A stretch of DNA of 64,000 nucleotides from an uncultured Chloroflexia bacterium (lineage in GTDB: Bacteria; Chloroflexota; Limnocylindria; Limnocylindrales; CSP1-4). This document shows, in pieces, positions 4,230-37,032 of the stretch. Under the pieces are notes generated by a model that saw only the letters and a list, made by a program, of their open reading frames with translations, had not been told where the DNA came from and made no database searches. Numbering within the stretch: position 1 is the first letter of the stretch; the number at the start of each line of letters is the position of its first letter. A program made the position numbers and the translations under genes. The stretch lies in contig CAVRKH010000012.1 of NCBI GenBank assembly GCA_963721655.1, positions 17,518 to 81,517 on the forward strand, in the 5' to 3' direction.

Positions 4230-5369
4230 GCGTGGGCATCGACGCACCGGCTCCGATCGCGACGGACCGCCCGACTGGCCTCCCCCGCTCCGCTCGCGGC
4301 GTCCCCGCCGACGGCGGGCAGCGGCGCGTCCGCGTCGCGATCGTCGGCGCGACCGGCTACGTGGGCGCCGAGCTCATCCGCATCCTGGCGCGCCACCCGA
4401 ACGTCGAGCTGGTGGGACTGCAGGGCCGCGATCGCGACAACGAGCCGATCGAGGACACGCACCGCCATCTCGCGGGTACGGGCCTGACCGTCGACTCGGC
4501 ACTGCCCGAGGCGGACGCCGTGTTCCTGGCGCTGCCCCACGGGACTGCCGCGGCGCGAGTCCCCGAGATTGCGCGTGACGGGACCGCGGTGATCGACCTT
4601 GGGCCGGACTTCCGGCTGCGCGACCCGGCCGACTACCCGCGCTGGTACGGGTTCGAGCATCCCCACCCGGAGCTCGCGACCGCGGCAACGTACGGGCTGC
4701 CGGAGCTCCACCGCGCCGAGCTCGCGGCCCTCGTCGATGCGCCCGTTGCCATCGTCGGCGCACCGGGCTGCTATCCGACCGCGACGCTCCTGGCGCTCGC
4801 GCCGCTGGCCCGTGCCGGGCTCATCGAAGACCTCGTGGTGGACGCCAAGAGCGGTGTCTCGGGCGCCGGCCGCGACCCGAAGCCGGACATGATGTTCGGC
4901 GAGGTCAACGAGAGCGTGAAGGCGTACGGCATCGGCGGGCATCGCCACGTGGCCGAGATCGAGCAGGAGCTCGCCTCGCTGGGTGGCGACGTGGCGGCCA
5001 ATCCGGGAGCGGTCGGCGTGGACTTCCTGCCTCACCTCATCCCGATGAACCGCGGCATCCTGTCGGCATGCCACGTCCGTGCCACGCGACCGATCAGCCA
5101 GGCCGAGCTCGACCGGCTGTATGCCGAGGCCTATGCAGACGAACCGTTCGTGCGCGTCGTCGCCACCGCCGCCGGCCACCAGGCACGTGACGGGCTCGAA
5201 CGAGGCCCGCGTCCACGTCCATCTCGATGAGCGGACCGGCCGGATCCTCGCGATCGGGGTGATCGACAACCTCGTCAAGGGCGCCGCGGGCCAGGGCGTC
5301 CAGGCATTCAACATCGTCCACGGCCTGCCCGAGACCGCCGGTCTCGAGCAGCTGCCGCTGGCGCCATAG
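4226..5369 (+). CDS. argC: N-acetyl-gamma-glutamyl-phosphate reductase (frameshift ~5170)
   Basis: [42 protein letters not shown]; C-terminus [11 protein letters not shown] lies in a second frame. Confidence 0.93.
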
Positions 5370-26610: not shown

Positions 26611-27129
26611 TCAGGAAGGCTGCGCCTGGCGACGCTCGGCTGCCCCGGTCGCCTCGGCTCGTTCCTTCAGCGTCCGCAGATGGTGTTCGACGCGGCTCGC
26701 GAGCGACTCGCGGCTCAGCTTCATGAGGATCCCGGCCCAGCGGTCGTGCGGATCGAACGTCGCGACGTGGACCACCCGGGTGCCACCGGCGAGCGGTTCG
26801 AACCACCAGCGGAACTCGCCGCTGAACCCGGCGCCGGTCACCCGCAGCGCAAAGCTCGACTGCGGACGCGCCTCGAGGCTCTCGACGCGGGCCGTATCGC
26901 GGAGGAGGCCCACGCGGGTCTCGGCACGGCGGGTCGACGCAGCCGCGGGCCAGTCCGGGGCGGGCGGGTCGAGCCGGAGCTGCGGAAAGAGCGCACCGGC
27001 GTTGGCCGGATCGTGCAGGGTCGCCCACACGATTCGCGGCGACGCGTTCACGAAGACGCGCCGCTCGACCGCCCCCGGGTCGAGCCTTCCCGAACGGGAA
27101 GATGTCTGTCTGTTCGTTCCCACAGCCAT
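26611..27129 (-). CDS. SRPBCC (START-like) domain protein
   Basis: VFVNASPRIVWATLHD...W.FEPLAGGTRV, C-terminal helix L..LKERAE. Confidence 0.8.
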   Translation of the reverse strand: MAVGTNRQTSSRSGRLDPGAVERRVFVNASPRIVWATLHDPANAGALFPQLRLDPPAPDWPAAASTRRAETRVGLLRDTARVESLEARPQSSFALRVTGAGFSGEFRWWFEPLAGGTRVVHVATFDPHDRWAGILMKLSRESLASRVEHHLRTLKERAEATGAAERRQAQPS

Positions 27130-27131
27130 CG

Positions 27132-28112
27132 CTACACCCCGATCGGGTGCCAGACCGTCTTCATCTCCATGAAGGCGGCAATCCATTCAGGCCGCTCGGC
27201 GGCACGGTCGTCCAGCCAGTCGAAACGAGCCTCGGACACGGTCGTCGGGCGGCGCAGCACCCGCTTGACGTCGTCGGCCGCAAGCAAGTCGACTTCCATG
27301 CGCATGGTGTCAGGCACGCCCCACGTGTCGAGCGCGTCGACGTCGGCATGCCCCGCGAGGACCGGGACGAGCTCGGGCTTCAGGCCGGTGAGGACGTTCA
27401 CGACGCCGCCGGGCACGTCGGACGTGGCGAACACCTCGCTGAGCGTCACCGCGGGCAGCGGCCGGGTCTCGGACGTCAGGACGACCACCGCGTTACCGGC
27501 GACGAGTGGCGGGGCGAGCCGTGAGACCAGCCCGAGGAGCGACGAGGTCTCCGGCGCCACGATGCCGACCACTCCGGTCGGCTCCGGGATCGTGAAGTTG
27601 AAGTACGGGGCAGCCACCGGGTTCGACGAGCCCAGCACCTGGCCGATCTTGTCGGCCCAGCCCGCGTACCAGACCCAGCGGTCGATCGCCGCGTCGACGG
27701 CCCGTGCCGCGGCCGGCTGGCGCAGGCCCTCGGCAGCCGCGACCTCGTCGACGAACTGGTCGCGCCGGCCCTCCATCAGCTCGGCGACGCGGTACAGCAC
27801 CTGGCCGCGGTTCATCGCGGTCTTGGCGGCCCAGCCGGGGAACGCCTTGCGCGCGACACGCACCGCGTCGCGCAGATCCTTGCGTGAGGCGCGAGCCGCG
27901 TTCGCGAGGGGCGAGCCGTCCGCCGCCGAGACGAGGTACGAGCGGCCGGATTCGGACCGCGGGAAGTCCCCACCGACAAACAGCTTGTACGTCTTGCGCA
28001 CGGCGATCCGGGCCGGAGTCGCGGCCGTGGCCGCCGTCTGCGCACGCCGTGCGACGGCGCGCGACGTCCCGTTCCGCCCGTTCGAGGACGCGGACGAGGG
28101 GCGCGTGGCCAT
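27132..28112 (-). CDS. Short aldehyde-dehydrogenase-like protein (NAD-binding part only)
   Basis: KTYKLFVGGDFPRSESGR, NFTIPEPTGVVG, GGVVNVLTG, ends EMKTVWHPIGV; no ELGG or catalytic Cys segment. Confidence 0.88.
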   Translation of the reverse strand: MATRPSSASSNGRNGTSRAVARRAQTAATAATPARIAVRKTYKLFVGGDFPRSESGRSYLVSAADGSPLANAARASRKDLRDAVRVARKAFPGWAAKTAMNRGQVLYRVAELMEGRRDQFVDEVAAAEGLRQPAAARAVDAAIDRWVWYAGWADKIGQVLGSSNPVAAPYFNFTIPEPTGVVGIVAPETSSLLGLVSRLAPPLVAGNAVVVLTSETRPLPAVTLSEVFATSDVPGGVVNVLTGLKPELVPVLAGHADVDALDTWGVPDTMRMEVDLLAADDVKRVLRRPTTVSEARFDWLDDRAAERPEWIAAFMEMKTVWHPIGV

Positions 28113-29635
28113 CAGCGGTCCTCCAGGCGGACGTACGCGTGGAGCCCGTGCATGCCGCCCTCGCGCCCGAAGCCGGATTGCTTGTAGCCGCCGAACGGCG
28201 ACGTCGGATCGAAGCGATTGAACGTGTTCGCCCACACGACCCCGGCACGCATCTTCGAGACCATCGCCAGGATCCGGCTCCCCTTCTCCGTCCAGATGCC
28301 GGCCGACAGCCCGTAGACCGTGTTGTTGGCCTTCTCGACGGCCTCGTCCGGCGTCCGGAACGTCAGCGTCGAGAGGACCGGCCCGAAGATCTCCTCGCGC
28401 GCGATGCGATGGCTCTGCGCGACATTCGTGAACAGCGTCGGCCGGAAGAAATAGCCCCGCTCCGGCAGGTCGCACGGCGGCTGGTAGAGGTCGGCGCCCT
28501 CGTCGACGCCGGCCTGCACGAGCTCGGTGATCTTCTCGAGCTGGCTCTTCGAGTTGATCGCGCCGACATCGGTGTTCTTGTCGAGTGGGTCGCCGACGCG
28601 GATCGTCGCGAGGCGGTCCTTGAGCTTGTCGATCAGTGCGTCGGCGATCGACTCCTGGACGAGCAGCCGCGACCCGGCGCAGCAGACCTCGCCCTGGTTG
28701 AAGTAGATGCCGTTGACGATGCCCTCGACGGCCTGGTCGAGCGGCGCATCGTCGAACACGATGTTGGCGGCCTTGCCACCGAGCTCGAGCGTGAGCGCCT
28801 TGTCGGTGCCGGCCACGCCGCGCTGGATCTTCTTGCCGATCTCGGTCGAGCCGGTGAACGCGACCTTGTCGACGCCGGGGTGCATCGCCAGCACCGTCCC
28901 GATCTCGCCGGGCCCCGGCGTGATGTTGACCACGCCCGGCGGCAGGTCGGCCTGGCGGCAGACGTCGGCGAACAGCAGCGCGCTGAGCGGGGTCGTCGAC
29001 GCGGGCTTGAGGACGACCGTGTTGCCGGCGGCAAGGGCCGGGGCGATCTTCCAGGAAAGCATGAGCAGCGGGAAGTTCCACGGGATGATCTGGGCGGCGA
29101 CGCCGAGCGGCTTCGCGACGCGGCCCGGGAACGCGTACTCGAGCTTGTCGGCCCAGCCCGCGTAGTACCAGAAGTGGGCCGCGGCCAGCGGCACGTCGAC
29201 GTCGCGGCTCTCCTTGATCGGCTTGCCCGAGTCCATCGACTCGAGGACCGCGAACTCCCGGCTGCGCTCCTGGAGGATGCGCGCGATCCGGAACAGGTAC
29301 TTGGCGCGTTCCTTCCCGGGGAGGCTGCCCCACGACCGGCGCTGGGCACGGCGCGCGGCGCGGACCGCCTTGTCGATGTCGGCCGGCGTCGCGCGTGCGA
29401 TCTGGGCGAGCGGTTGTTCGGTCGACGGGTCGATCGAGGTGAACGTGGCGCCATCCGAGGACGGGACCTCGCGCCCACCGATGAACAGCCCGTAACGCTC
29501 CTTGAGCGTGACGATGTCACGCGCCTCGGGCGCCGGTGCATATTCCCAGGGGATCGCCTGACCGTCGCCGAGGCCCCAGCTGTTCGGGGCACGCTCGCCG
29601 GTGGTTGCGACGCGCGTGTCGGAGTCGGTGGCCAT
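28112..29635 (-). CDS. Aldehyde dehydrogenase
   Basis: IIPWNFP, FTGST, LELGGK, NQGEVCCAG, EEIFGPV, GGYKQSGFGRE. Confidence 0.96.
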   Translation of the reverse strand: MATDSDTRVATTGERAPNSWGLGDGQAIPWEYAPAPEARDIVTLKERYGLFIGGREVPSSDGATFTSIDPSTEQPLAQIARATPADIDKAVRAARRAQRRSWGSLPGKERAKYLFRIARILQERSREFAVLESMDSGKPIKESRDVDVPLAAAHFWYYAGWADKLEYAFPGRVAKPLGVAAQIIPWNFPLLMLSWKIAPALAAGNTVVLKPASTTPLSALLFADVCRQADLPPGVVNITPGPGEIGTVLAMHPGVDKVAFTGSTEIGKKIQRGVAGTDKALTLELGGKAANIVFDDAPLDQAVEGIVNGIYFNQGEVCCAGSRLLVQESIADALIDKLKDRLATIRVGDPLDKNTDVGAINSKSQLEKITELVQAGVDEGADLYQPPCDLPERGYFFRPTLFTNVAQSHRIAREEIFGPVLSTLTFRTPDEAVEKANNTVYGLSAGIWTEKGSRILAMVSKMRAGVVWANTFNRFDPTSPFGGYKQSGFGREGGMHGLHAYVRLEDR

Positions 29636-29657
29636 CCCATGCATTATGGCACTCGTC

Positions 29658-30632
29658 ATGCTTCCGCCCCGCACGGCGCGTGGCGCCGCGCTGCGCCTGC
29701 TCCTGTTCGCGGCCATCCCCGTGGCGTGCGTTCCGACAGCCACGCCGAGCCCACCTTCGACCGTGCTCGGCGGAGCCTGGGAGCGACGGGCCGACGCGCC
29801 GGTCGCCCTGACCGAGGTGGCGGTGACCTCGCACGACGGCCGGATCTGGGTGGCGGGCGGGCTCACCGCCGGCGGAGCGGGCTCGACCGACGTCTTCGTG
29901 TACGACCCGGCGACCGATGCCTGGACCGAGGGACCCGACCTGCCCGAGGCCGTTCATCACTCGACGCTCGTGAGCGACGGCGAGTCGCTGCGGCTCCTCG
30001 GCGGCTTTGCGGGCAGCACGTTCGACAACCCGACGCCGGCTGTTCGCCGTCTGGATGACGGGGCATCGACATGGGTCGACGACCCGCCGCTCCCCGAGCC
30101 GCGCGCGGCAGGGGCGGCGGCCTGGGACGGATCGCGGATCGTGTACGCGGGCGGGGTCGAGCCGGGGGCCGTCTCCGGCGCCGTGTTCGCGTTCGAGGAC
30201 GGTGCGTGGAGCCAGGTCGCCCGGCTGGCGAACCCGCGCGAGCACCTCGCGGCCACCTCCGACGGGGAGGGCGGCACGTACGTCGTCGGCGGGCGCGTCG
30301 GCGGCCTCGACGGCAACCTGGCCACGGCCGACCTGGTGCGGGGCACGACGGCGGAGACGATCGGCGAGTTGCCGACGCGGCGCGGCGGTGTCGCTGCGTT
30401 CTGGTGGCCGACCCTCGGGGCGTGCCTTGTCGGCGGGGAGTCACCCGGCGGTACGAACCCACAGGTCGAGTGCATCGACGAGGACGGCGACGTCGCGGTG
30501 CTGCCGGGTCTGGCACACCCGCGGCACGGGCTGGGTGCCGCGGTCGTCGATGGCGTGGCCTACGTCGCGCTCGGCGGCGATCAGCCCGGCCTGTTCGTCA
30601 GCCCGACGGTCGAGTCACTGCAGCTGCCCTGA
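29658..30632 (+). CDS. Kelch-repeat lipoprotein
   Basis: Lipobox-like VAC; repeated (V/L)AGG...W...LP.PR Kelch units. Confidence 0.85.
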   Translation: MLPPRTARGAALRLLLFAAIPVACVPTATPSPPSTVLGGAWERRADAPVALTEVAVTSHDGRIWVAGGLTAGGAGSTDVFVYDPATDAWTEGPDLPEAVHHSTLVSDGESLRLLGGFAGSTFDNPTPAVRRLDDGASTWVDDPPLPEPRAAGAAAWDGSRIVYAGGVEPGAVSGAVFAFEDGAWSQVARLANPREHLAATSDGEGGTYVVGGRVGGLDGNLATADLVRGTTAETIGELPTRRGGVAAFWWPTLGACLVGGESPGGTNPQVECIDEDGDVAVLPGLAHPRHGLGAAVVDGVAYVALGGDQPGLFVSPTVESLQLP

Positions 30633-30899
30633 CGGACTGGCTGTGGCGGACGCAGCCGGGCAGCGATACGCGATCAGCGGGTGCCACGCTTCGCAGTAGC
30701 GGACGTGCAGTAGGTGGACAGGGCGGCGACCTGACCCGCCACCGTGAGCAGGAGGAGCACCGCCCCGACCATCGGCAGCAGGCGGCGTGCGGGGCGGCGC
30801 GGGCGGCGAGCGAGCGAAGGCATCCGGCGGGCTAGAGTACGCCAGCACCCGGCCGGTACCAAACGCGGCCGATCGACCCGCCACCTGGAGACCTGCCCG

Positions 30900-31638
30900 A
30901 TGGATCGCCGCGACGGTGCCGAAGAGCACCTCGACGGTCCGCTCGACGACCAGCCGACGCTCGTCGGCAACCTGCGCGACCTGCGCCGGCTGAACCGGTT
31001 GTCGGGGGGCGTCGCGTTGAGCCGCTGGGGCGTCAACCGGCTGCTCGACGGGACCGCCGAGCCGACGACGCTGATCGACGTGGGCACCGGGGGCGCCGAC
31101 ATCCCGGTTGCGCTGCTGGCCGATTCCGTCTGGCGCGGACGACCTCTCGAGATCACGGCCGTCGACAGCCGGGCCGAGGTGCTCAGCGCGGCGCGCGTCG
31201 CCCGCCCGAAGCTGGATCGCGTCCAGCGCTTGCGGCTGGCCCTCGTCGACCCGGAGCGCCTGCCGTACCAGAACGAGACGTTCGACGTCGGGCACGCGTC
31301 GCTGGTCGTGCATCACCTTGATGAGGCCGAGGCCGTCCGCTTTCTCGCGGAGCTCGGCCGTGTCAGCCGGCGCGGGATCGTCGTCAACGACCTGCACCGC
31401 GGTCACCTCGGATTGATCGGCGCATGGCTCGCCGGCCGGTTCCTCACCCGGAACCGCTACACGCGTGACGATTCGCTGCTGTCCGTCCGACGGGCCTGGA
31501 CACTCGCGGAGGTCGAGGGGCTGCTGCGCCGGGCCGGGCTGGAGCCGGTCGATCGCCGGACGGCCGCGTTCGGCCAGCGCTACGCGGTGGTCGCGGTCCC
31601 GGCAGCGCGCCACGGCTCCCGCAGCCGCCGACCCGTGA
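30900..31638 (+). CDS. Class I SAM-dependent methyltransferase
   Basis: LRDLRRLNRLSGG, LIDVGTGGADIP, FDVGHASLVVHHL, VNDLHR; native TGA probably the GTGA at 31635-31638. Confidence 0.88.
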
Positions 31639-32847
31639 CGGAACCGGACGTCGCGATCGTCGGCGGCGGGCCGTCCGGGGCAATCGTCGCGTCGCTGCTG
31701 GCCCGCGCCGGCCACGACGTCACCCTGTTCGAGCGAAGCCCGGCATACCGCTGGCGAGCCTGCGGCGTGTTCGCGTCGCCCGCCACGGTCGCGGCGCTCC
31801 GCCGGGTCGGACTGGATGAGGCGACGCTTGCCCGGGTTGCCCGGCCCATCCCGGCAATGCGCGTTGAGACACCCACCGGGATCGCCTTCCGCCTGCCGTA
31901 CGGCGACGGGGAGCCGGTCGGGTTCGACCGCTCGGCGCTCGATCCGGCGCTCCTCGACGAGGCGCGGGCGGCCGGTGCGTCGGTGTGCACGGGCGCCCGG
32001 GTCGAGGCGGTGGACCTGGACGGGCCGCGGCCGGTGCTCCAGGTGCGCACAGCGCAGGGCCTCGAGCGACACACGGCCCGGCTCGTGGTCGGGGCCGACG
32101 GCGGCAACTCGATCGTCGCCCGGGCCGCGCGCGTCGCTCGATCCGCCCAGCTCGCCCCGCGCGTGGGCCTCACCTTCCACCTCGAAGACCGTGCCGGCGA
32201 TCCCGGCGCCGATGCCCGGATGCGCGTGTTCCGCGACGGCTACGTCGGTGTCGCCCCGGTTCCCGGCGGACGGGTGAACGTCGGGATCGTCCTCGGCCGG
32301 AGCTGGGGCCCGCGTCTTGCGGCCGACGGAGCCGAAGCGATCGCCGAGGAGGTCGTCTCCGGCATCCCGGTACTCGATGGTGCCGCCGGCTCGCCGCCGG
32401 ATCCCGCGGTATGGCGGACTGGAGCTCGCCTCGACCGCGTCGCCGGCGCCAGCCCGCTCGGCCACCGCGTGACCAGGCGCGCCGGTTCCACGTGGCTCGT
32501 GGTCGGCGACGCCGCCGGGTTCCTCGACCCGTTCACCGGCGAGGGACTGCATCGCGCGGTCGTTTCGGCCGAGCTCGCCGCACGGGCCGTCGCCGCGGCC
32601 CTCCGCGGCAATCCGCGGGCGCTCCCCGCCTACGACCGGGCCATGCGCCGCCGGTTCGCCGCCAAGGACGTCGTGTCGTGGCTCGTGCAGGTGTTCCTGG
32701 AGCGACCCGCCCTGTTCGAGTACGCCGCCCGCCGGATCGCGGCCCGCAGCGCCGTCCGTGAGACGATGGGCCTTGTCATGGGTGATCTCGTGCCCGCTTC
32801 CCGTGCGCTCGACCCGCGCTATCCTCGGCGCGCTCCTTCGCCCGTGA
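31635..32847 (+). CDS. FAD-dependent oxidoreductase (FixC/geranylgeranyl-reductase-like)
   Basis: DVAIVGGGPSG, VVGADGGNS, VGDAAGFLDPFTGEG; TGA at 32845 reached after a +1 indel at ~32822 (YLGALLRP*). Confidence 0.88.
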
Positions 32848-33320
32848 CCGATCCGGCTGTCAGCGAACCCACCCCGCGCCCGGCCAGCGGACGAACGCGC
32901 CTCGGGAGCTATGCGATCTGCCTCGACCGCGACGACCGGATCCTGCTGTGCCGCCTTGCTTCGAACGAGCCCGAGCCGGGAGCGTGGACGCTACCCGGCG
33001 GTGGCGTCGATTTCGGGGAGCATCCTGACGACGCCGTCGTCCGCGAGCTGCGCGAGGAAAGCGGGCTGACGGGGCGCATCGCCGAAGTCGAAGGCGTGTT
33101 CTCGCACCTCTACCCCGCCTCGCAGTACGCGAGCGGCGCCGACCTGCACTTCCTCGGCGTCCTGTACCGCGTCGAGGTGACCGGCGGACGATTGACCGAC
33201 GAGGTCGATGGCTCCACGGACCGCTGCGGCTGGTTCGGTCGCGACGAGGTAGCCCAGCTGAAGCTGGTGTCGGTCGCACGGCACGCGATCGGTCTCGTGT
33301 GGCCCGGCGCGCTCGCATGA
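32844..33320 (+). CDS. NUDIX hydrolase
   Basis: WTLPGGGVDFGEHPDDAVVRELREESGL, an intact Nudix box. Confidence 0.92.
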   Translation: MTDPAVSEPTPRPASGRTRLGSYAICLDRDDRILLCRLASNEPEPGAWTLPGGGVDFGEHPDDAVVRELREESGLTGRIAEVEGVFSHLYPASQYASGADLHFLGVLYRVEVTGGRLTDEVDGSTDRCGWFGRDEVAQLKLVSVARHAIGLVWPGALA

Positions 33321-33903
33321 AGAGCGCCATCTCGATCGATGTCGCGGCGCCGCCCGAGGTGGTGTTCGCCCTGGCACGGGACGTGGAGCGCTGGCCGCGG
33401 CTGCTCGCCCACTACGAGGACGTCCGGATCCTCGAACGGCGGCCCGATGGCAGCGTGGTCGCCCGGATGATCGCTCGACGGCCGGTGTTCGGGCTGCTCG
33501 GCATCGGCCTGCCGGTGGCGTGGCGGTCGCGGACATGGAGCGAGCCCGAGACCTGCCGGATCCGGTTCGTCCACCAGGGCGGCGCGACGAACGGGATGGA
33601 CGTCACGTGGCGGATCGAGTCGACCGGAGGGGGGCTGCCGGGTCACGATCGAGCACGACTTCCGGCCGCGGTTCGCGCCGTGGGCACCGTTCATCGACAC
33701 GGTTCTTCACCCGACCGATCGCCGGACGGACGCTCGCCACGTTCAAGGCGATCGCGGAGGCGTTGGCGAGCGCAGGAGCCGCGCCCGCGACGGAGGCGTT
33801 CGCGAGCCGCAGCTCGCGTCCGACGAAGGGCGCGGGCTCCGAGAGCCCGCCGGTGCCGAGCGCGGACTCCGAGAGCCCGCCGGCGTCGAAGAGATCAGCA
33901 TGA
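33317..33903 (+). CDS. SRPBCC / polyketide cyclase-like protein (frameshifts ~33635, ~33690)
   Basis: SIDVAAPPEVVFALARDVERWP, G...MDVTWRIE, TIEHD, I..RTLATFKAIAE. Confidence 0.8.
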
Positions 33904-35165
33904 GCACGCGGCGCAGGGTGTTCGTCACCGGGATCGGCGTGATCACGCCGATCGGCACGGGCGTCGACGCCTTCCGGGCCGGGCTGCGCGCCGCCCGCTC
34001 CCCGGTCCGGCGGATCGACCGCTTCGATCCGTCCGAATTCCGCTCGCAGGTCGCGGCCCAGGTCGACGACTTCGACCCGCTGGCGTGGCTCGAACCGAAG
34101 GTCGCCCGGCAGCTCGACCGGTTCAGCCAGTTCGGCCTCGTCGCCGGGCGGCTCGCCCTCGAGGACGCACGCCTCGTCCCCGGCGCCCCGAACAACCCGA
34201 GCCCCGAACGGATCGGGATCTACCTCGGCAGCGCGCTCGGCGGGATCGCCTACGCGGAGTCGCAGCACGAGCGGTACATGGACAAGGGCATCCGCCAGGT
34301 CGCGCCGAACCTTGCCCTGGCCGTGTTCGGCGGCGCGGCCCCGGCCAATCTCGGGATCGCGCTCGACGTGCGCGGCCCGATCCTGTCGACGGCCAACTCG
34401 TGCGCCTCGGGGAGCGTGGCCCTCGGCGAGGCACTCGGGGACCTGCGCGACGGGCGGGTCGACGCGGCGATTGCCGGGGGCTGCGAGGTGCCGCTGAGCG
34501 CCCTCGCGTTCGGTGCCTTCGACATCATCCGGGCGCTCTCGTCGACCCACAACGACGATCCGGGGAGTGCCGCCCGGCCCTTCGACCGTGACCGCGATGG
34601 CTTCGTCATGGGCGAGGGCGTCGCGTGGCTCGTGCTCGAGACCGAGGACATCGTCCGTGCGCGCGGCGCCGAGCCCTACGCGGAATTGCTCGGCTACGGG
34701 GCGACCTCCGACGCATACCACATGGTCCAGCCGCGTCCCGACGGGCGCGAGGCCGGCCGAGCCGCGCGGATCGCGCTGGAGGACGCCGGCGTGGACGGCG
34801 CCGAGATCGACTACGTGAACGCCCACGCCTCGTCGACGCCGATCGGTGACATCGCCGAGGCCCGGGCGATCGCGCTGGCCCTCGGGGAACGGGCGACGAG
34901 CGTCCCGGTGAGTGGCACGAAGGCGTACTACGGCCACCCACTCGGGGCGTCGGGCGCGATCGAAGGTGCCATCGCCGCGCTCGCGATCCGCGACGGCTGG
35001 GCGCCCCCGACGGTGAACCTCGACGACCCGGACCCCGACGTCGCGGCGATCCTGCCGATGCTGCTCCGCGAGGGCTGCCCCGGGACCTACCGCCGGGTGC
35101 TGTCGACCTCGTTCGGGTTCGGCGGCCTGAATGCCGCGGTCGTGCTCGGGGCGCCGGACGGCTGA
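33900..35165 (+). CDS. Beta-ketoacyl synthase II (FabF/KS-alpha-like)
   Basis: VTGIGVITPIG, ANSCASG (Cys), YVNAHASST (His), KAYYGHPLGASG (His), STSFGFGG. Confidence 0.93.
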   Translation: MSTRRRVFVTGIGVITPIGTGVDAFRAGLRAARSPVRRIDRFDPSEFRSQVAAQVDDFDPLAWLEPKVARQLDRFSQFGLVAGRLALEDARLVPGAPNNPSPERIGIYLGSALGGIAYAESQHERYMDKGIRQVAPNLALAVFGGAAPANLGIALDVRGPILSTANSCASGSVALGEALGDLRDGRVDAAIAGGCEVPLSALAFGAFDIIRALSSTHNDDPGSAARPFDRDRDGFVMGEGVAWLVLETEDIVRARGAEPYAELLGYGATSDAYHMVQPRPDGREAGRAARIALEDAGVDGAEIDYVNAHASSTPIGDIAEARAIALALGERATSVPVSGTKAYYGHPLGASGAIEGAIAALAIRDGWAPPTVNLDDPDPDVAAILPMLLREGCPGTYRRVLSTSFGFGGLNAAVVLGAPDG

Positions 35166-36544
35166 GTCCCGGCGCGGCTCAGCGCGGCCGGGCCCCCGGA
35201 CCGACCATCGCCTCGACGACGCCGCCCTCGACCGGAGTCGGCGCGACAGCGGCAGGCCGCGCCGCGGCGGGCCGCGCCTCGACACGCCTGCGCAATCGGC
35301 TCAGGAACCGTCACGAACCCGACCTGGCCGCGCATCCAGAGCAAGGCGGCGAGGCCGACCACGGCTGCGCCGATCCCCCCGATCGCGACCGCCACGGCGA
35401 CGCCCGCTGCCGAGGCGAGCCAACCGAACAGCAGGCCACCGATCGGCGTCGTGCCCGCGAAGACGGTCGTGTAGACGCTCATCGCGCGACCGCGAAGGGC
35501 GTCCGGGACGTTGAGCTGGATCATCGTGTTGGCGGTGGCGGCCATCGTGATGGCCCCGAACCCGACGATCACCATCAGCAGGAGCGACACCGAGAAGAGG
35601 TTCGAGGCTGCGAGCAGGACCTCGGCCAGCCCGAGGGCGATCGCGCCACCGACCAGCCGGCCCACGCGGGGCATGCCACCCGACACCGCCAGCCAGGCCG
35701 CCGCGATCAGCGAGCCGACGCCCGAGGCGGTCATCAGGAAGCCATAGCCGGAGGCATCGGTGCCGAGGACGTCGCGCGCGAGCGCCGGGATCACGACCGT
35801 GAAGTTCATGCCAAAGATGCTCACCAGGCCGATGACGACGATCCCGAGGAGCACCGGCGGGGTGTGCCGCACGTAACCGATCCCTTCGCGGAGCTGCGCG
35901 ATCACCTCGGGGGCGTTCCGCGGTCGTGGCGGCAACTCCGGCGTTCGAAGGGCGCTGGCGTCCATGGCAGCGAGCGCGACGAGCACCGCCGCGAAGCTGG
36001 CCGCGTTGATGGCGAACGCCACGCCGGAGCCGAACGCTCCGATCGTCAGGCCGGCCACGGCCGGGCCGACGACGCGCGCCGCGTTGAACATCGCCGAGTT
36101 GAGGGCGACCGCGTTGCCGATGTCGCCGCGCCCGACGATCTCGACCACGAAGCTCTGGCGGACGGGCATGTCGATCGCGTTGGCGGTGCCGAGGAGCAGC
36201 GCCAGGACGATGATCATCCAGACCTCGACGACACCGGTCAGCGTGAGCACGGCGAGGATCGCGGCGAGCACCATCATCACGGCCTGCACGACGAAGATCG
36301 TCTGGCGCTTCGGCAGGACGTCGGCGAGCACGCCGCCGAACAGGCCGAAGACCATGACCGGGAGGAACTGCGCGGCAGCGACCACGCCCAGCCAGAACGC
36401 ATCGTTGGTGAGCTCGAGGACGAGCCAGGCCTGGGCGACCTGCTGCATCCACGTCCCGATCAGCGAGATGAGCTGGCCGCCGAAGAACAGCTGGTAGTTG
36501 CGGTGGCGGAAGGCGCGCAGCCCTCGGACGGAGTGCACGGTCAT
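35087..36544 (-). CDS. MFS transporter, MFS_3/DUF894 type (C-terminal tail probably frameshifted; likely stop ~35179)
   Basis: FGGQLISLIGTWMQ, FGGVLADVLPK, AVALNSAMFNAARVVGP, ALRGRAMS. Confidence 0.9.
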   Translation of the reverse strand: MTVHSVRGLRAFRHRNYQLFFGGQLISLIGTWMQQVAQAWLVLELTNDAFWLGVVAAAQFLPVMVFGLFGGVLADVLPKRQTIFVVQAVMMVLAAILAVLTLTGVVEVWMIIVLALLLGTANAIDMPVRQSFVVEIVGRGDIGNAVALNSAMFNAARVVGPAVAGLTIGAFGSGVAFAINAASFAAVLVALAAMDASALRTPELPPRPRNAPEVIAQLREGIGYVRHTPPVLLGIVVIGLVSIFGMNFTVVIPALARDVLGTDASGYGFLMTASGVGSLIAAAWLAVSGGMPRVGRLVGGAIALGLAEVLLAASNLFSVSLLLMVIVGFGAITMAATANTMIQLNVPDALRGRAMSVYTTVFAGTTPIGGLLFGWLASAAGVAVAVAIGGIGAAVVGLAALLWMRGQVGFVTVPEPIAQACRGAARRGAACRCRADSGRGRRRRGDGRSGGPAALSRAGTQPSGAPSTTAAFRPPNPNEVDSTRR

Positions 36545-37032
36545 CGGCCGCGCCCGGTCCTGGTCGCCCTCGGCGACCGCTCGATGCCGGCCAGGTGGTC
36601 CGCCAGGTGGCGCCGGCGCGCTTCGGCTTCGTCGATCATCTCCGCGATGCGGACCGCCTTGTCTCGGAGCGTGTCGATCTGACCATCGACGCGCGCCAAC
36701 GCGTCAATCAGGATCGCGCGGCGCTCGGTGGGGTCCTCGGTCGCTTGAAACCGTTCGCGGTTGCGCTCGCGGGCGGCCTCGTCCTCGAGCAGCTGGCCGA
36801 TCTGGGCCAGCGAGAATCCCGCGTCGTCGCGGAGGCCGCGGATGAACCTGAGCCGCGCGATGTCCGACTCGTCGTACAGGCGGTAGGCGCCCTCGGAACG
36901 GGCGGCGGGTTCGAGGAGCCCGATCTCCTCGTAGTAGCGGATGGAACGGGGCGTCAGGCCGACCTCTGCGGCGACCTCCTGGATGCGCAGGAGTCCGGGA
37001 TCGTCCGACGCCCGGGGCTGGGTCGTCGTCAC
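36541..37032 (-). CDS. MerR family regulator
   Basis: LRIQEVAAEVGLTPRSIRYYEEIGLL.P.ARSEGAYRLY, GFSLAQI. Confidence 0.93.
   Translation of the reverse strand: MTTTQPRASDDPGLLRIQEVAAEVGLTPRSIRYYEEIGLLEPAARSEGAYRLYDESDIARLRFIRGLRDDAGFSLAQIGQLLEDEAARERNRERFQATEDPTERRAILIDALARVDGQIDTLRDKAVRIAEMIDEAEARRRHLADHLAGIERSPRATRTGRGR

Follow-up and report, generated by a model that had tools for sequence, protein, structure and literature searches.

An operon in the 64,000-nucleotide stretch of DNA analysed here (the window) is, by sequence comparison, the Limnocylindria version of a four-gene module that encodes a methyltransferase (MT), an FAD oxidoreductase (FAD), an SRPBCC protein and a β-ketoacyl synthase (KS) and occurs in at least six bacterial phyla. 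Judged from its sequences and gene order, this module would be a variant of the phenolic-lipid operon composed of an MT, an FAD oxidoreductase and a type III polyketide synthase (PKS), in which a FabF-like KS and the SRPBCC protein replace the type III PKS. We put the probability of this reading at roughly 0.55.

The operon occupies the forward strand and is followed by two genes on the opposite strand:

30900..31638, + strand: SAM-dependent methyltransferase, MT (Pfam Methyltransf_11/25; weak matches to UbiE and NCBIfam PRK06202)
31635..32847, + strand: FAD oxidoreductase (FAD_binding_3; geranylgeranyl-reductase / two-component halogenase-like family)
32844..33320, + strand: NUDIX hydrolase (Pfam PF00293)
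33317..33903, + strand: SRPBCC protein (Pfam Polyketide_cyc; aromatase/cyclase-like by sequence and fold matches)
33900..35165, + strand: FabF-like β-ketoacyl synthase, KS, 421 aa, intact (PF00109 + PF02801)
35087..36544, − strand: MFS_3 transporter (Pfam), convergent with the operon
36541..37032, − strand: MerR-family regulator, coupled to the MFS gene and seen in close relatives only

The initial annotation described five overlap-coupled genes. Pfam analysis bears out the five domains, their plus strand and their coordinates, and all four overlap motifs are present (GTGA at 31635 and 32844, ATGA at 33317 and 33900), but the genes are not five intact open reading frames as assembled. Starts lie at ATG 30900 for the MT, GTG 31635 for the FAD, GTG 32844 for the NUDIX and ATG 33317 for the SRPBCC gene. 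The ancestral stop of the MT gene is the TGA within GTGA 31635-31638, and that of the FAD gene is the TGA within GTGA 32844-32847. The tblastn match to the MFS gene spans residues 1-431 of 454.

These genes are found together in many lineages. Synteny of MT-FAD-SRPBCC-KS extends over Chloroflexota, Gemmatimonadota, Eremiobacterota, Armatimonadota, Elusimicrobiota and cultured Paenibacillus, so that the neighbourhood check proposed in the initial annotation comes out positive in at least six phyla. FAD, SRPBCC and KS are adjacent in 16 of the 20 inspected Chloroflexota loci, most of which also have the MT. In the other groups SRPBCC and KS adjoin each other in nearly all of 120 loci, with MT and/or FAD alongside in most. 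The NUDIX gene is present in L002, L003, L004, L019, L063, L089 and L111, frameshifted in L001 and missing in the other module loci; because it is confined to the Limnocylindria lineage, it falls outside the conserved core, and the processing of CoA thioesters suggested for it in the initial annotation would be a putative role. The MFS gene, which does not stand beside the module in L019 or in other phyla, adjoins the operon in close relatives only and probably does not belong to the core either. By this comparison of neighbourhoods, the NUDIX hydrolase, the MFS exporter and the MerR regulator are lineage-specific additions. Modules from Gemmatimonadota contain an inserted flavin reductase (PF01613), which fits a two-component flavin enzyme.

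The module appears to carry neither a carrier protein nor a second synthase of its own. A tblastn search with the genome's AcpP gave no acyl carrier protein (ACP) match at E < 0.01, either within the window or across the 1.23 Mb that surround 142 module loci, and the same 1.23 Mb yielded no type III PKS homologue by tblastn. There is likewise no adjacent chain-length factor (CLF): tblastn with the KS found one KS gene per module locus, the apparent double KS in L075 and L140 being frameshift splits only. The earlier observation that no ACP, CLF, AT or fab gene lies nearby therefore stands, since the AcpP search of the window was empty and the genome's fab genes are on other contigs.

No other module member is as conserved or as tightly linked as the KS. 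Its Cys-His-His triad is intact, as originally noted (Cys168, His309, His346), and is accompanied by Lys341; all four residues are conserved in 100% of 66 module KS. Ten positions, including S167 beside the catalytic Cys168, set the module KS apart from other KS of the same genomes. Identity among module KS across phyla is 46-57%, compared with 36-44% to other KS and about 40-45% to housekeeping FabF. In the tree, a single branch (SH-aLRT 100) separates the 66 module KS, which form a clade of their own and do not group with housekeeping FabF, from 20 further KS encoded in those genomes. The window KS is not the sole copy: its genome also contains fabF, in an acc-fabZ-fabF-fabH cluster on contig C21, and a fabD-KS-KS set on C2, three additional KS genes in all; acpP is on C14. 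Against the NCBIfam fabF equivalog TIGR03150 the KS scores 429.5 bits, below the cut-off of 493.75, and the broader subfamily model PRK07314 is the only one it passes. Its pairwise, not tree-based, bit scores are 329 to FabF (1J3N) and 268 to the actinorhodin KS (1TQY_A). The module KS shares the fold and the Cys-His-His-Lys catalytic residues of housekeeping FabF (KAS II), but differs in altered residues near the active site and in having no fab or acp context. A housekeeping FabF was rejected on the separate clade, the sub-cut-off score and this missing context.

The SRPBCC protein is closest to the aromatase/cyclases of type II PKS, in agreement with the earlier remark that such cyclases accompany KS-CLF pairs. 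Profile matches were obtained to BexL (5e-17), WhiE (1e-12), TcmN (4e-9) and ZhuI (about 6e-7). Its AlphaFold model adopts a helix-grip fold (pLDDT 92). A fold search with this model returned TTHA0849, a START protein from Thermus without an assigned function, as the top match, followed by WhiE-ORFVI, ZhuI and TcmN, and the TM scores to WhiE, ZhuI and TcmN were 0.64-0.76. In TcmN/WhiE numbering, the catalytic pocket residues are Tyr35 and Arg69. The module family keeps the Tyr of the W-P-x-x-L-x-x-Y motif as an aligned, invariant residue (Y33), a likeness to the type II enzymes. The Arg69 column, in contrast to TcmN and WhiE-ORFVI, is not conserved; Arg69 has no aligned equivalent in the module SRPBCC proteins, and an invariant Arg stands elsewhere (R55). 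The invariant set of the family comprises H32, Y33, R55, W69, H86, T91 and H113.

The MT and FAD tie the module to type III PKS operons. [quoted passage not shown] The MT tree and the FAD tree each place the type III PKS-linked proteins in two groups that lie within the KS-module proteins (starred support). Neither MT nor FAD has a paralogue in the window's genome, which also gave no match to the type III PKS family (PF00195, Chal_sti_synt). Across 301 Chloroflexota genomes, the SRPBCC family occurs in 40 and type III PKS in 36, with none holding both (hypergeometric P = 0.004, a value that ignores phylogenetic non-independence). The FAD contains the RxRACG motif, and its best solved-structure matches are CmlS and CndH. 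Flavin-dependent halogenases of the CmlS/CndH type are marked by a WxWxIP motif; a halogenase of this type was rejected, as the corresponding stretch of the window FAD reads GYVGVAPVP. The FAD family includes both C=C reductases (geranylgeranyl reductases) and hydroxylases, so ring hydroxylation is only a putative role. The Gimesia maris mtr and fdo genes come from an experimentally studied alkylresorcinol operon (PMC10896814, PMC6836626). The window MT is 37% identical to G. maris mtr over 63 aa (E 5e-9), a short alignment to an OCR-damaged sequence, and the window FAD has family-specific motifs in common with fdo, likewise through short alignments to OCR-damaged sequence. The earlier remark that this MT and FAD pair flanks type III PKS is thus confirmed for homologues in other Chloroflexota and matches the G. 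maris operon.

Several characterized systems share features with the module. The hierridin hidABC, srsABC and planctomycete alkylresorcinol operons are likewise small, contain MT and FAD of the same families and, as in the module, have the synthase in the last operon position (PMC10896814, PMC6836626). They differ in that the synthase is a type III PKS, whereas the module has the SRPBCC cyclase-like protein and the FabF-type KS; with this replacement the substrates of the module would probably be ACP-bound and not CoA esters. Type II aromatic PKS resemble the module in combining a discrete KS of the KAS I/II fold with a single-domain SRPBCC aromatase/cyclase-like protein, but the module is without a CLF, a dedicated ACP and a KR, and its KS is nearer to FabF than to KS-alpha. 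To our knowledge, the phyla that carry the module are not known for type II PKS. In the DarAB / BrtCD dialkylresorcinol pathway, a ketosynthase and an "aromatase" likewise lead to a resorcinol from fatty-acid-derived thioesters. DarB is KAS III (FabH)-like and couples two chains head to head; by this description it is set apart from the module KS, which is KAS II-like (PF00109 + PF02801) and has no FabH domains. DarA is not known as an SRPBCC protein. Both the resorcinol formation by this pathway and the dependence of some ACP-less DarAB/BrtCD-type clusters on primary metabolism are described in the literature (PMC6836626).

The best reading of these comparisons is that KS and cyclase would act as a carrier-less, CLF-less synthase standing in for the type III PKS. 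Given their place at the type III PKS position, they would probably lead to a related compound by an undescribed route. Comparative genomics supports in this respect the original proposal of a minimal polyketide or phenolic-lipid pathway with a homodimeric FabF-like KS. In the proposed mechanism, a homodimeric KS would load an acyl starter from housekeeping AcpP, or possibly from CoA, and add malonyl units a few times with no reduction. The helix-grip pocket of the SRPBCC protein could then hold the poly-β-keto chain for aldol cyclization and aromatization to a resorcinol-type ring. The FAD enzyme, presumably dependent on free reduced flavin, would hydroxylate this ring, and the MT would methylate it to give a methoxy-alkylphenol or alkylquinone-like product. 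We found no characterized precedent for an iterative, non-reducing FabF-type KS acting without a CLF or dedicated ACP.

A wider proposal, which we advance tentatively and at slightly less than even odds, is that a CLF-less, ACP-less "type II-like" PKS, made up of a homodimeric FabF-derived KS and one SRPBCC aromatase/cyclase, has on two or more occasions taken over from the type III PKS as the scaffold former for phenolic lipids or polyketide quinones tailored by MT and FAD, and is spread over six or more phyla of soil bacteria, most of them uncultured. If true, this would be a new and very small aromatic-polyketide architecture, one KS and one cyclase using the ACP of the cell, and a clear non-orthologous replacement of a type III PKS within an otherwise conserved operon. 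Such a module would probably be missed by current detection rules for biosynthetic gene clusters. In actinobacteria, alkylresorcinol-derived quinones from the type III PKS version reportedly serve as alternative carriers of electrons and as factors in the membrane or in antibiotic resistance (PMC9927152, PMC10896814). In light of these roles, the module could matter for respiration or for the cell envelope in soil lineages that are abundant but uncultured, such as Limnocylindria, Gemmatimonadota and Eremiobacterota. Because cultured Paenibacillus strains carry the module, the idea is directly testable.

Two rival functions were weighed. The module might modify ordinary lipids and make no aromatic polyketide, with the KS as a specialized elongating condensing enzyme, the SRPBCC protein as a lipid-binding or dehydratase-like helper, and MT and FAD methylating and reducing a chain of acyl or isoprenoid type, as happens when methyl-branched lipids form or when geranylgeranyl-reductase-type enzymes saturate their substrates. 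The greater likeness of the KS to FabF than to the type II KS-alpha (329 vs 268 bits) is consistent with this, as is the lack of an ACP, CLF, KR or TE. The FAD also matches the geranylgeranyl-reductase family (TIGR02032, 126.7 bits), and weakly MenJ, and has a Cys motif typical of geranylgeranyl-type reductases. Lipid carriers such as Coq10 are also found among SRPBCC proteins, and source databases label homologues as RatA or COQ10. However, the SRPBCC protein best matches catalytic aromatase/cyclases and not Coq10/RatA, save for the one START protein at the head of the fold matches. The MT does not belong to the cyclopropane/CFA-synthase type, both MT and FAD are members of a type III PKS-linked family with which they interleave in the trees, and the module and a type III PKS are found together in 0 of 301 genomes. 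We therefore regard lipid modification as unlikely. Far less probable still is the tailoring of a respiratory, menaquinone-like quinone by a UbiE-like MT, a UbiH/MenJ-like flavoprotein and a Coq10-like SRPBCC chaperone, with the KS accessory only. In its favour stand weak UbiE/COQ5, Ubi-OHase and MenJ matches and one homologue labelled COQ10-like by its source, but all of these matches fall far under the family cut-offs. An accessory part fits poorly with the KS being the most conserved and most tightly linked member, and no prenyltransferase or men/ubi gene flanks either of the two loci scanned with Pfam, L099 of Paenibacillus glycanilyticus and L194, an MT-FAD locus in G165.

The broken frames of the window also admit two explanations, of which assembly indels are the most likely. 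As assembled, MT, FAD and NUDIX form a single open reading frame (30744..33320; 858 aa, or 806 aa from ATG 30900), and the SRPBCC gene is split across three frames. Single-base insertions lie at ~31607, ~32823 and ~33699, in a G-run at 33624-33629, and at ~35289. The extra base at ~31607 puts the MT in frame with the FAD, that at ~32823 fuses FAD to NUDIX, those at 33624-33629 and 33699 cause the three-frame reading of SRPBCC, and that at ~35289 shifts the MFS C-terminus, so that this frame overlaps the KS gene. Four near relatives keep the five genes separate and linked by GTGA/ATGA overlaps; in L002 and L004 these genes encode 239-245, 403, 158, 164 and 421 aa and overlap by 4 nt, and the intact L002 MT matches 30900-31607 of the window at 92% identity (tblastn). 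None of the relatives whose sequence spans the respective site (L002, L003 and L004, and L063 except at 31607) has the insertions at 31607, 32823, 33699 and 35289; the G-run insertion is common to the window and L003 only.

Alternatively, the five insertions could be real mutations in a decaying pseudogene cluster, with a dead SRPBCC gene and MT-FAD-NUDIX as a non-functional read-through or newly made fusion protein. All five frameshifts fall within 3.7 kb (31607-35289), compared with only about one more in ~13 kb of flanks relative to L002; those in MT, FAD and MFS sit in the last ~25 codons, where selection is most tolerant, none creates a nearby stop, and the G-run insertion recurs in an independent contig (L003). 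On the other hand, the essential smc gene is likewise split by a frameshift, broken-frame signatures number ~27 per 100 kb here vs 8.6 per 100 kb at nine comparable loci, and the MAG is 75.7% complete despite 21 large contigs, which together point to an assembly prone to indels. Protein identity to intact relatives is also 90-97% for the KS and for the main parts of the other genes, all of them free of stops, and the window-specific insertions are missing in four relatives. Decay of the operon is thus improbable, at a minority chance well below that of assembly error; were the insertions real, the operon may be inactive in this genome. The C-terminal tail of the SRPBCC protein additionally contains a 90-nt in-frame insertion (33776-33874).

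Five domains are recognized by Pfam on the + strand at 30900–35165 of the window (C12:17518–81517; G+C ~71%). The source metagenome-assembled genome (MAG) comprises 3.39 Mb in 21 contigs with 75.7% completeness, and the protein relatives carry the labels Candidatus Limnocylindrales or Limnocylindria, Chloroflexota. The five genes are:

Within 30900–35165, + strand: methyltransferase (MT), Pfam Methyltransf_11/25
Within 30900–35165, + strand: FAD oxidoreductase (FAD), Pfam FAD_binding_3
Within 30900–35165, + strand: NUDIX hydrolase, Pfam
Within 30900–35165, + strand: SRPBCC protein, Pfam Polyketide_cyc
Within 30900–35165, + strand: complete ketosynthase (KS), Pfam ketoacyl-synt N and C

The KS is a FabF relative that forms its own clade. 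It scores 429.5 bits against the NCBIfam fabF model, under the equivalog cut-off of 493.75, and its best matches among solved structures, by bit score only, are FabF proteins (329 bits; actinorhodin KS, 268 bits). The genome carries three further KS genes, given here with its housekeeping acpP:

C21: fabF, in an accA-BCCP-accC-fabZ-fabF-fabH cluster
C2: two tandem KS genes, behind fabD
C14: acpP, housekeeping, in a plsX-acpP-rnc-smc arrangement

At least one further KS is also present in each of eight other genomes bearing the MT–FAD–SRPBCC–KS module. In a maximum-likelihood tree, one branch with an SH-aLRT of 100 parts 66 module KS from 20 other KS of the same genomes. The KS is thus distinct from housekeeping FabF and is not the sole copy. 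The Cys-His-His triad described as intact in the initial annotation is indeed so, with Cys168, His309 and His346, as well as Lys341, invariant across the module clade. Ten KS positions are specific to that clade (L113, a 139–150 stretch, S167, G205 and I210), and S167 adjoins the catalytic Cys168. On C2, outside the window, fabD and the two tandem FabF-like KS genes occupy 183069–186833, with an active-site Cys in both. This layout is similar to that of kasA/kasB, although the C2 set has no ACP gene between the KS genes.

Conservation of the KS is very strong, with hundreds of metagenomic homologues at 80–98% identity. A search with an intact SRPBCC protein found a homologue in 40 of 301 Chloroflexota genomes. 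FAD, SRPBCC and KS genes are adjacent in 16 of the 20 Chloroflexota loci inspected, with MT upstream in most of these. We also turned the invariant SRPBCC residues into a degenerate DNA pattern, which matched at least 120 loci in a GTDB set of one genome for each species. Gemmatimonadota are in the majority among the matches listed; the others listed are Chloroflexota including Thermomicrobia, Eremiobacterota/Vulcanimicrobiota, Armatimonadota, Elusimicrobiota, Paenibacillus humicus and P. glycanilyticus. The KS lies directly 3' of the SRPBCC gene in almost all of the listed pattern loci, and most of the loci also have MT and/or FAD beside this pair, so co-occurrence in other genomes, a check named at the outset, is seen across these phyla. 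Gene order is MT-FAD-SRPBCC-KS in Chloroflexota, Eremiobacterota and Paenibacillus, and FAD-X-MT-SRPBCC-KS in Gemmatimonadota, where direct inspection of the loci identified X:

L064 (Gemmatimonadota locus), 4788–5276: flavin reductase, PF01613, between FAD and MT; in the same place in most Gemmatimonadota loci (L049–L158)

Among the loci compared, NUDIX is confined to the Limnocylindria lineage. MFS_3 and MerR genes were considered as core members and rejected, their adjacency being limited to the closest relatives; the remaining flanking genes vary by lineage. SRPBCC-family members also occur with no adjoining KS at L023, L033 and L038, of which L023 (G129:C14) has SRPBCC and MT only. Across the window and the 1.23 Mb surrounding 142 module loci, tblastn gave no match to either the genome's own AcpP or a Chloroflexota type III polyketide synthase (PKS), which upholds the proposed lack of a neighboring ACP or type III PKS. 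No paper describing the module was found in the literature searched, most subscription-journal papers lying outside that search, and its proteins are named in the data sources only 'SRPBCC family protein', 'RatA' or '3-oxoacyl-ACP synthase II'.

MT and FAD belong to families in common with type III PKS operons, an association that the initial annotation had named. [quoted passage not shown] Type III PKS is present in 36 of the 301 Chloroflexota genomes. In five of 20 inspected type III PKS loci, homologues of MT (33–40% identity) and FAD (28–34%) come after the PKS, and in those five genomes the PKS-linked FAD gene is, by a wide margin, the top genome-wide match to the window FAD. The Gimesia maris homologues also match, as read from OCR-damaged sequences in the paper's supplement: mtr shares the family-specific VNDLxRxRxG...W..R.LTR stretch with MT (37% over 63 aa, E 5e-9), and fdo shares the RxxxCG and GDAAGxLxP motifs with FAD. 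In both the MT and FAD trees, proteins linked to type III PKS occur as two groups that branch, with starred support, within the KS-module proteins, and therefore the synthase partner changed at least twice. The distributions are complementary, with zero overlap between the 40 SRPBCC-family and 36 type III PKS genomes (n = 301; P = 0.004, uncorrected for phylogeny). No paralogues of MT or FAD were found in the window's genome, and a structure search returned no solved relative of MT. FAD falls in the geranylgeranyl-reductase/two-component halogenase-like group; a halogenase role was rejected, as the WxWxIP motif with the halogenase tryptophans is missing. In another genome, G165, an MT–FAD pair of the same families stands alone (L194, C1:2459000–2476000), ~600 kb from the genome's type III PKS and with no synthase gene beside it.

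The SRPBCC protein has an affinity to aromatase/cyclases. WhiE-ORFVI and TcmN are its top matches in a single-sequence search of solved structures, and profile matches include BexL (5e-17), WhiE-ORFVI (1e-12), TcmN (4e-9) and ZhuI (6.5e-7). The AlphaFold model has a helix-grip fold (pLDDT 92), for which Foldseek ranked TTHA0849, WhiE-ORFVI, ZhuI and TcmN best. BexL, WhiE-ORFVI, TcmN and ZhuI are aromatase/cyclases of type II PKS, where the initial annotation had placed SRPBCC cyclases beside KS-CLF. The invariant polar set of the module family is W26, H32, Y33, R55, W69, H86, T91 and H113. The catalytic Tyr of WhiE/TcmN aligns with the module Tyr, whereas the Arg69 column is not conserved in the module family. 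The C-terminal tail in the window (33776–33874) has a 90-nt in-frame insertion relative to the close relatives L002 and L004, holding an imperfect direct repeat (GSESPPVPSADSESPPAS). Tail length also varies in two other close relatives, L003 (+27 nt) and L063 (+60 nt).

The simplest account is that SRPBCC and KS are a two-protein synthase that may do the job of a type III PKS. Together they would perform non-reducing chain extension followed by directed cyclization, with acyl and malonyl units supplied by the cell's own ACP, FabD and fatty acid synthase, and FAD and MT might then decorate the ring, as in hid/srs systems. The minimal polyketide or phenolic-lipid pathway first proposed is supported by the checks suggested with it. 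Its main rival, a role for the module in non-aromatic lipid modification, seems improbable when set beside the cyclase affinity and the shared MT and FAD families; a part in respiratory-quinone tailoring is less likely still.

The initial annotation had described five genes coupled by overlaps. All four motifs, GTGA at 31635 and 32844 and ATGA at 33317 and 33900, are found in the sequence, and the genes are real, with L002 and L004 encoding five separate proteins with 4-nt overlaps. In the window assembly, however, the frames are broken: MT, FAD and NUDIX form one ORF (30744..33320), and the SRPBCC gene is divided among three frames. We aligned the DNA to four close relatives: L002 (ENA, 75-kb contig), L003 (ENA), L004 (JGI) and L063 (GTDB representative MAG). 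Single extra bases at ~31607, 32823, 33699 and 35289 occur only in the window and are absent from all relatives covering each site. A fifth, in the G-run at 33624–33629, is common to the window and L003 only, where it yields a 594-aa SRPBCC'-KS read-through. The base at ~35289 frameshifts the final ~25 codons of the MFS_3 gene (window 35087–35300), and as called, the ORF consequently runs 79 nt into the KS gene; the MFS_3 gene of the relatives ends 14 nt past the KS stop.

Indirect evidence favors assembly error for the five insertions over a decaying operon in the source genome, which we consider unlikely. Decay would fit the clustering of five frameshifts inside 3.7 kb, versus ~1 across the adjoining 13 kb, and the position of three of the five insertions in the final ~25 codons of their genes. 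Yet the essential smc gene is also split (C14:84760–88481, outside the window), a frameshift within the coiled coil leaving ORFs of 668 and 510 aa, and MAG completeness is low given its contiguity. Broken-frame ORFs, defined by a high-GC3 body and a long low-GC3 tail, number ~27 per 100 kb genome-wide versus 8.6 per 100 kb in nine control loci that come from other genomes and have similar G+C, a count that is crude because antisense ORFs produce false positives and is informative only in its threefold excess. We also sought rpoB as an indel gauge and found none in this incomplete MAG. Given the smc split and the ~3x signature, odd ORF boundaries elsewhere in the MAG should be read cautiously.

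A second, unrelated SRPBCC gene (Polyketide_cyc2) lies at 26614–27129 on the − strand of the window. Beside it stand an ABC transporter and a tandem pair of aldehyde dehydrogenase genes (26614–29866, − strand), an arrangement kept in loci L001 and L002; in L002 both dehydrogenases are called as a single 837-aa protein.
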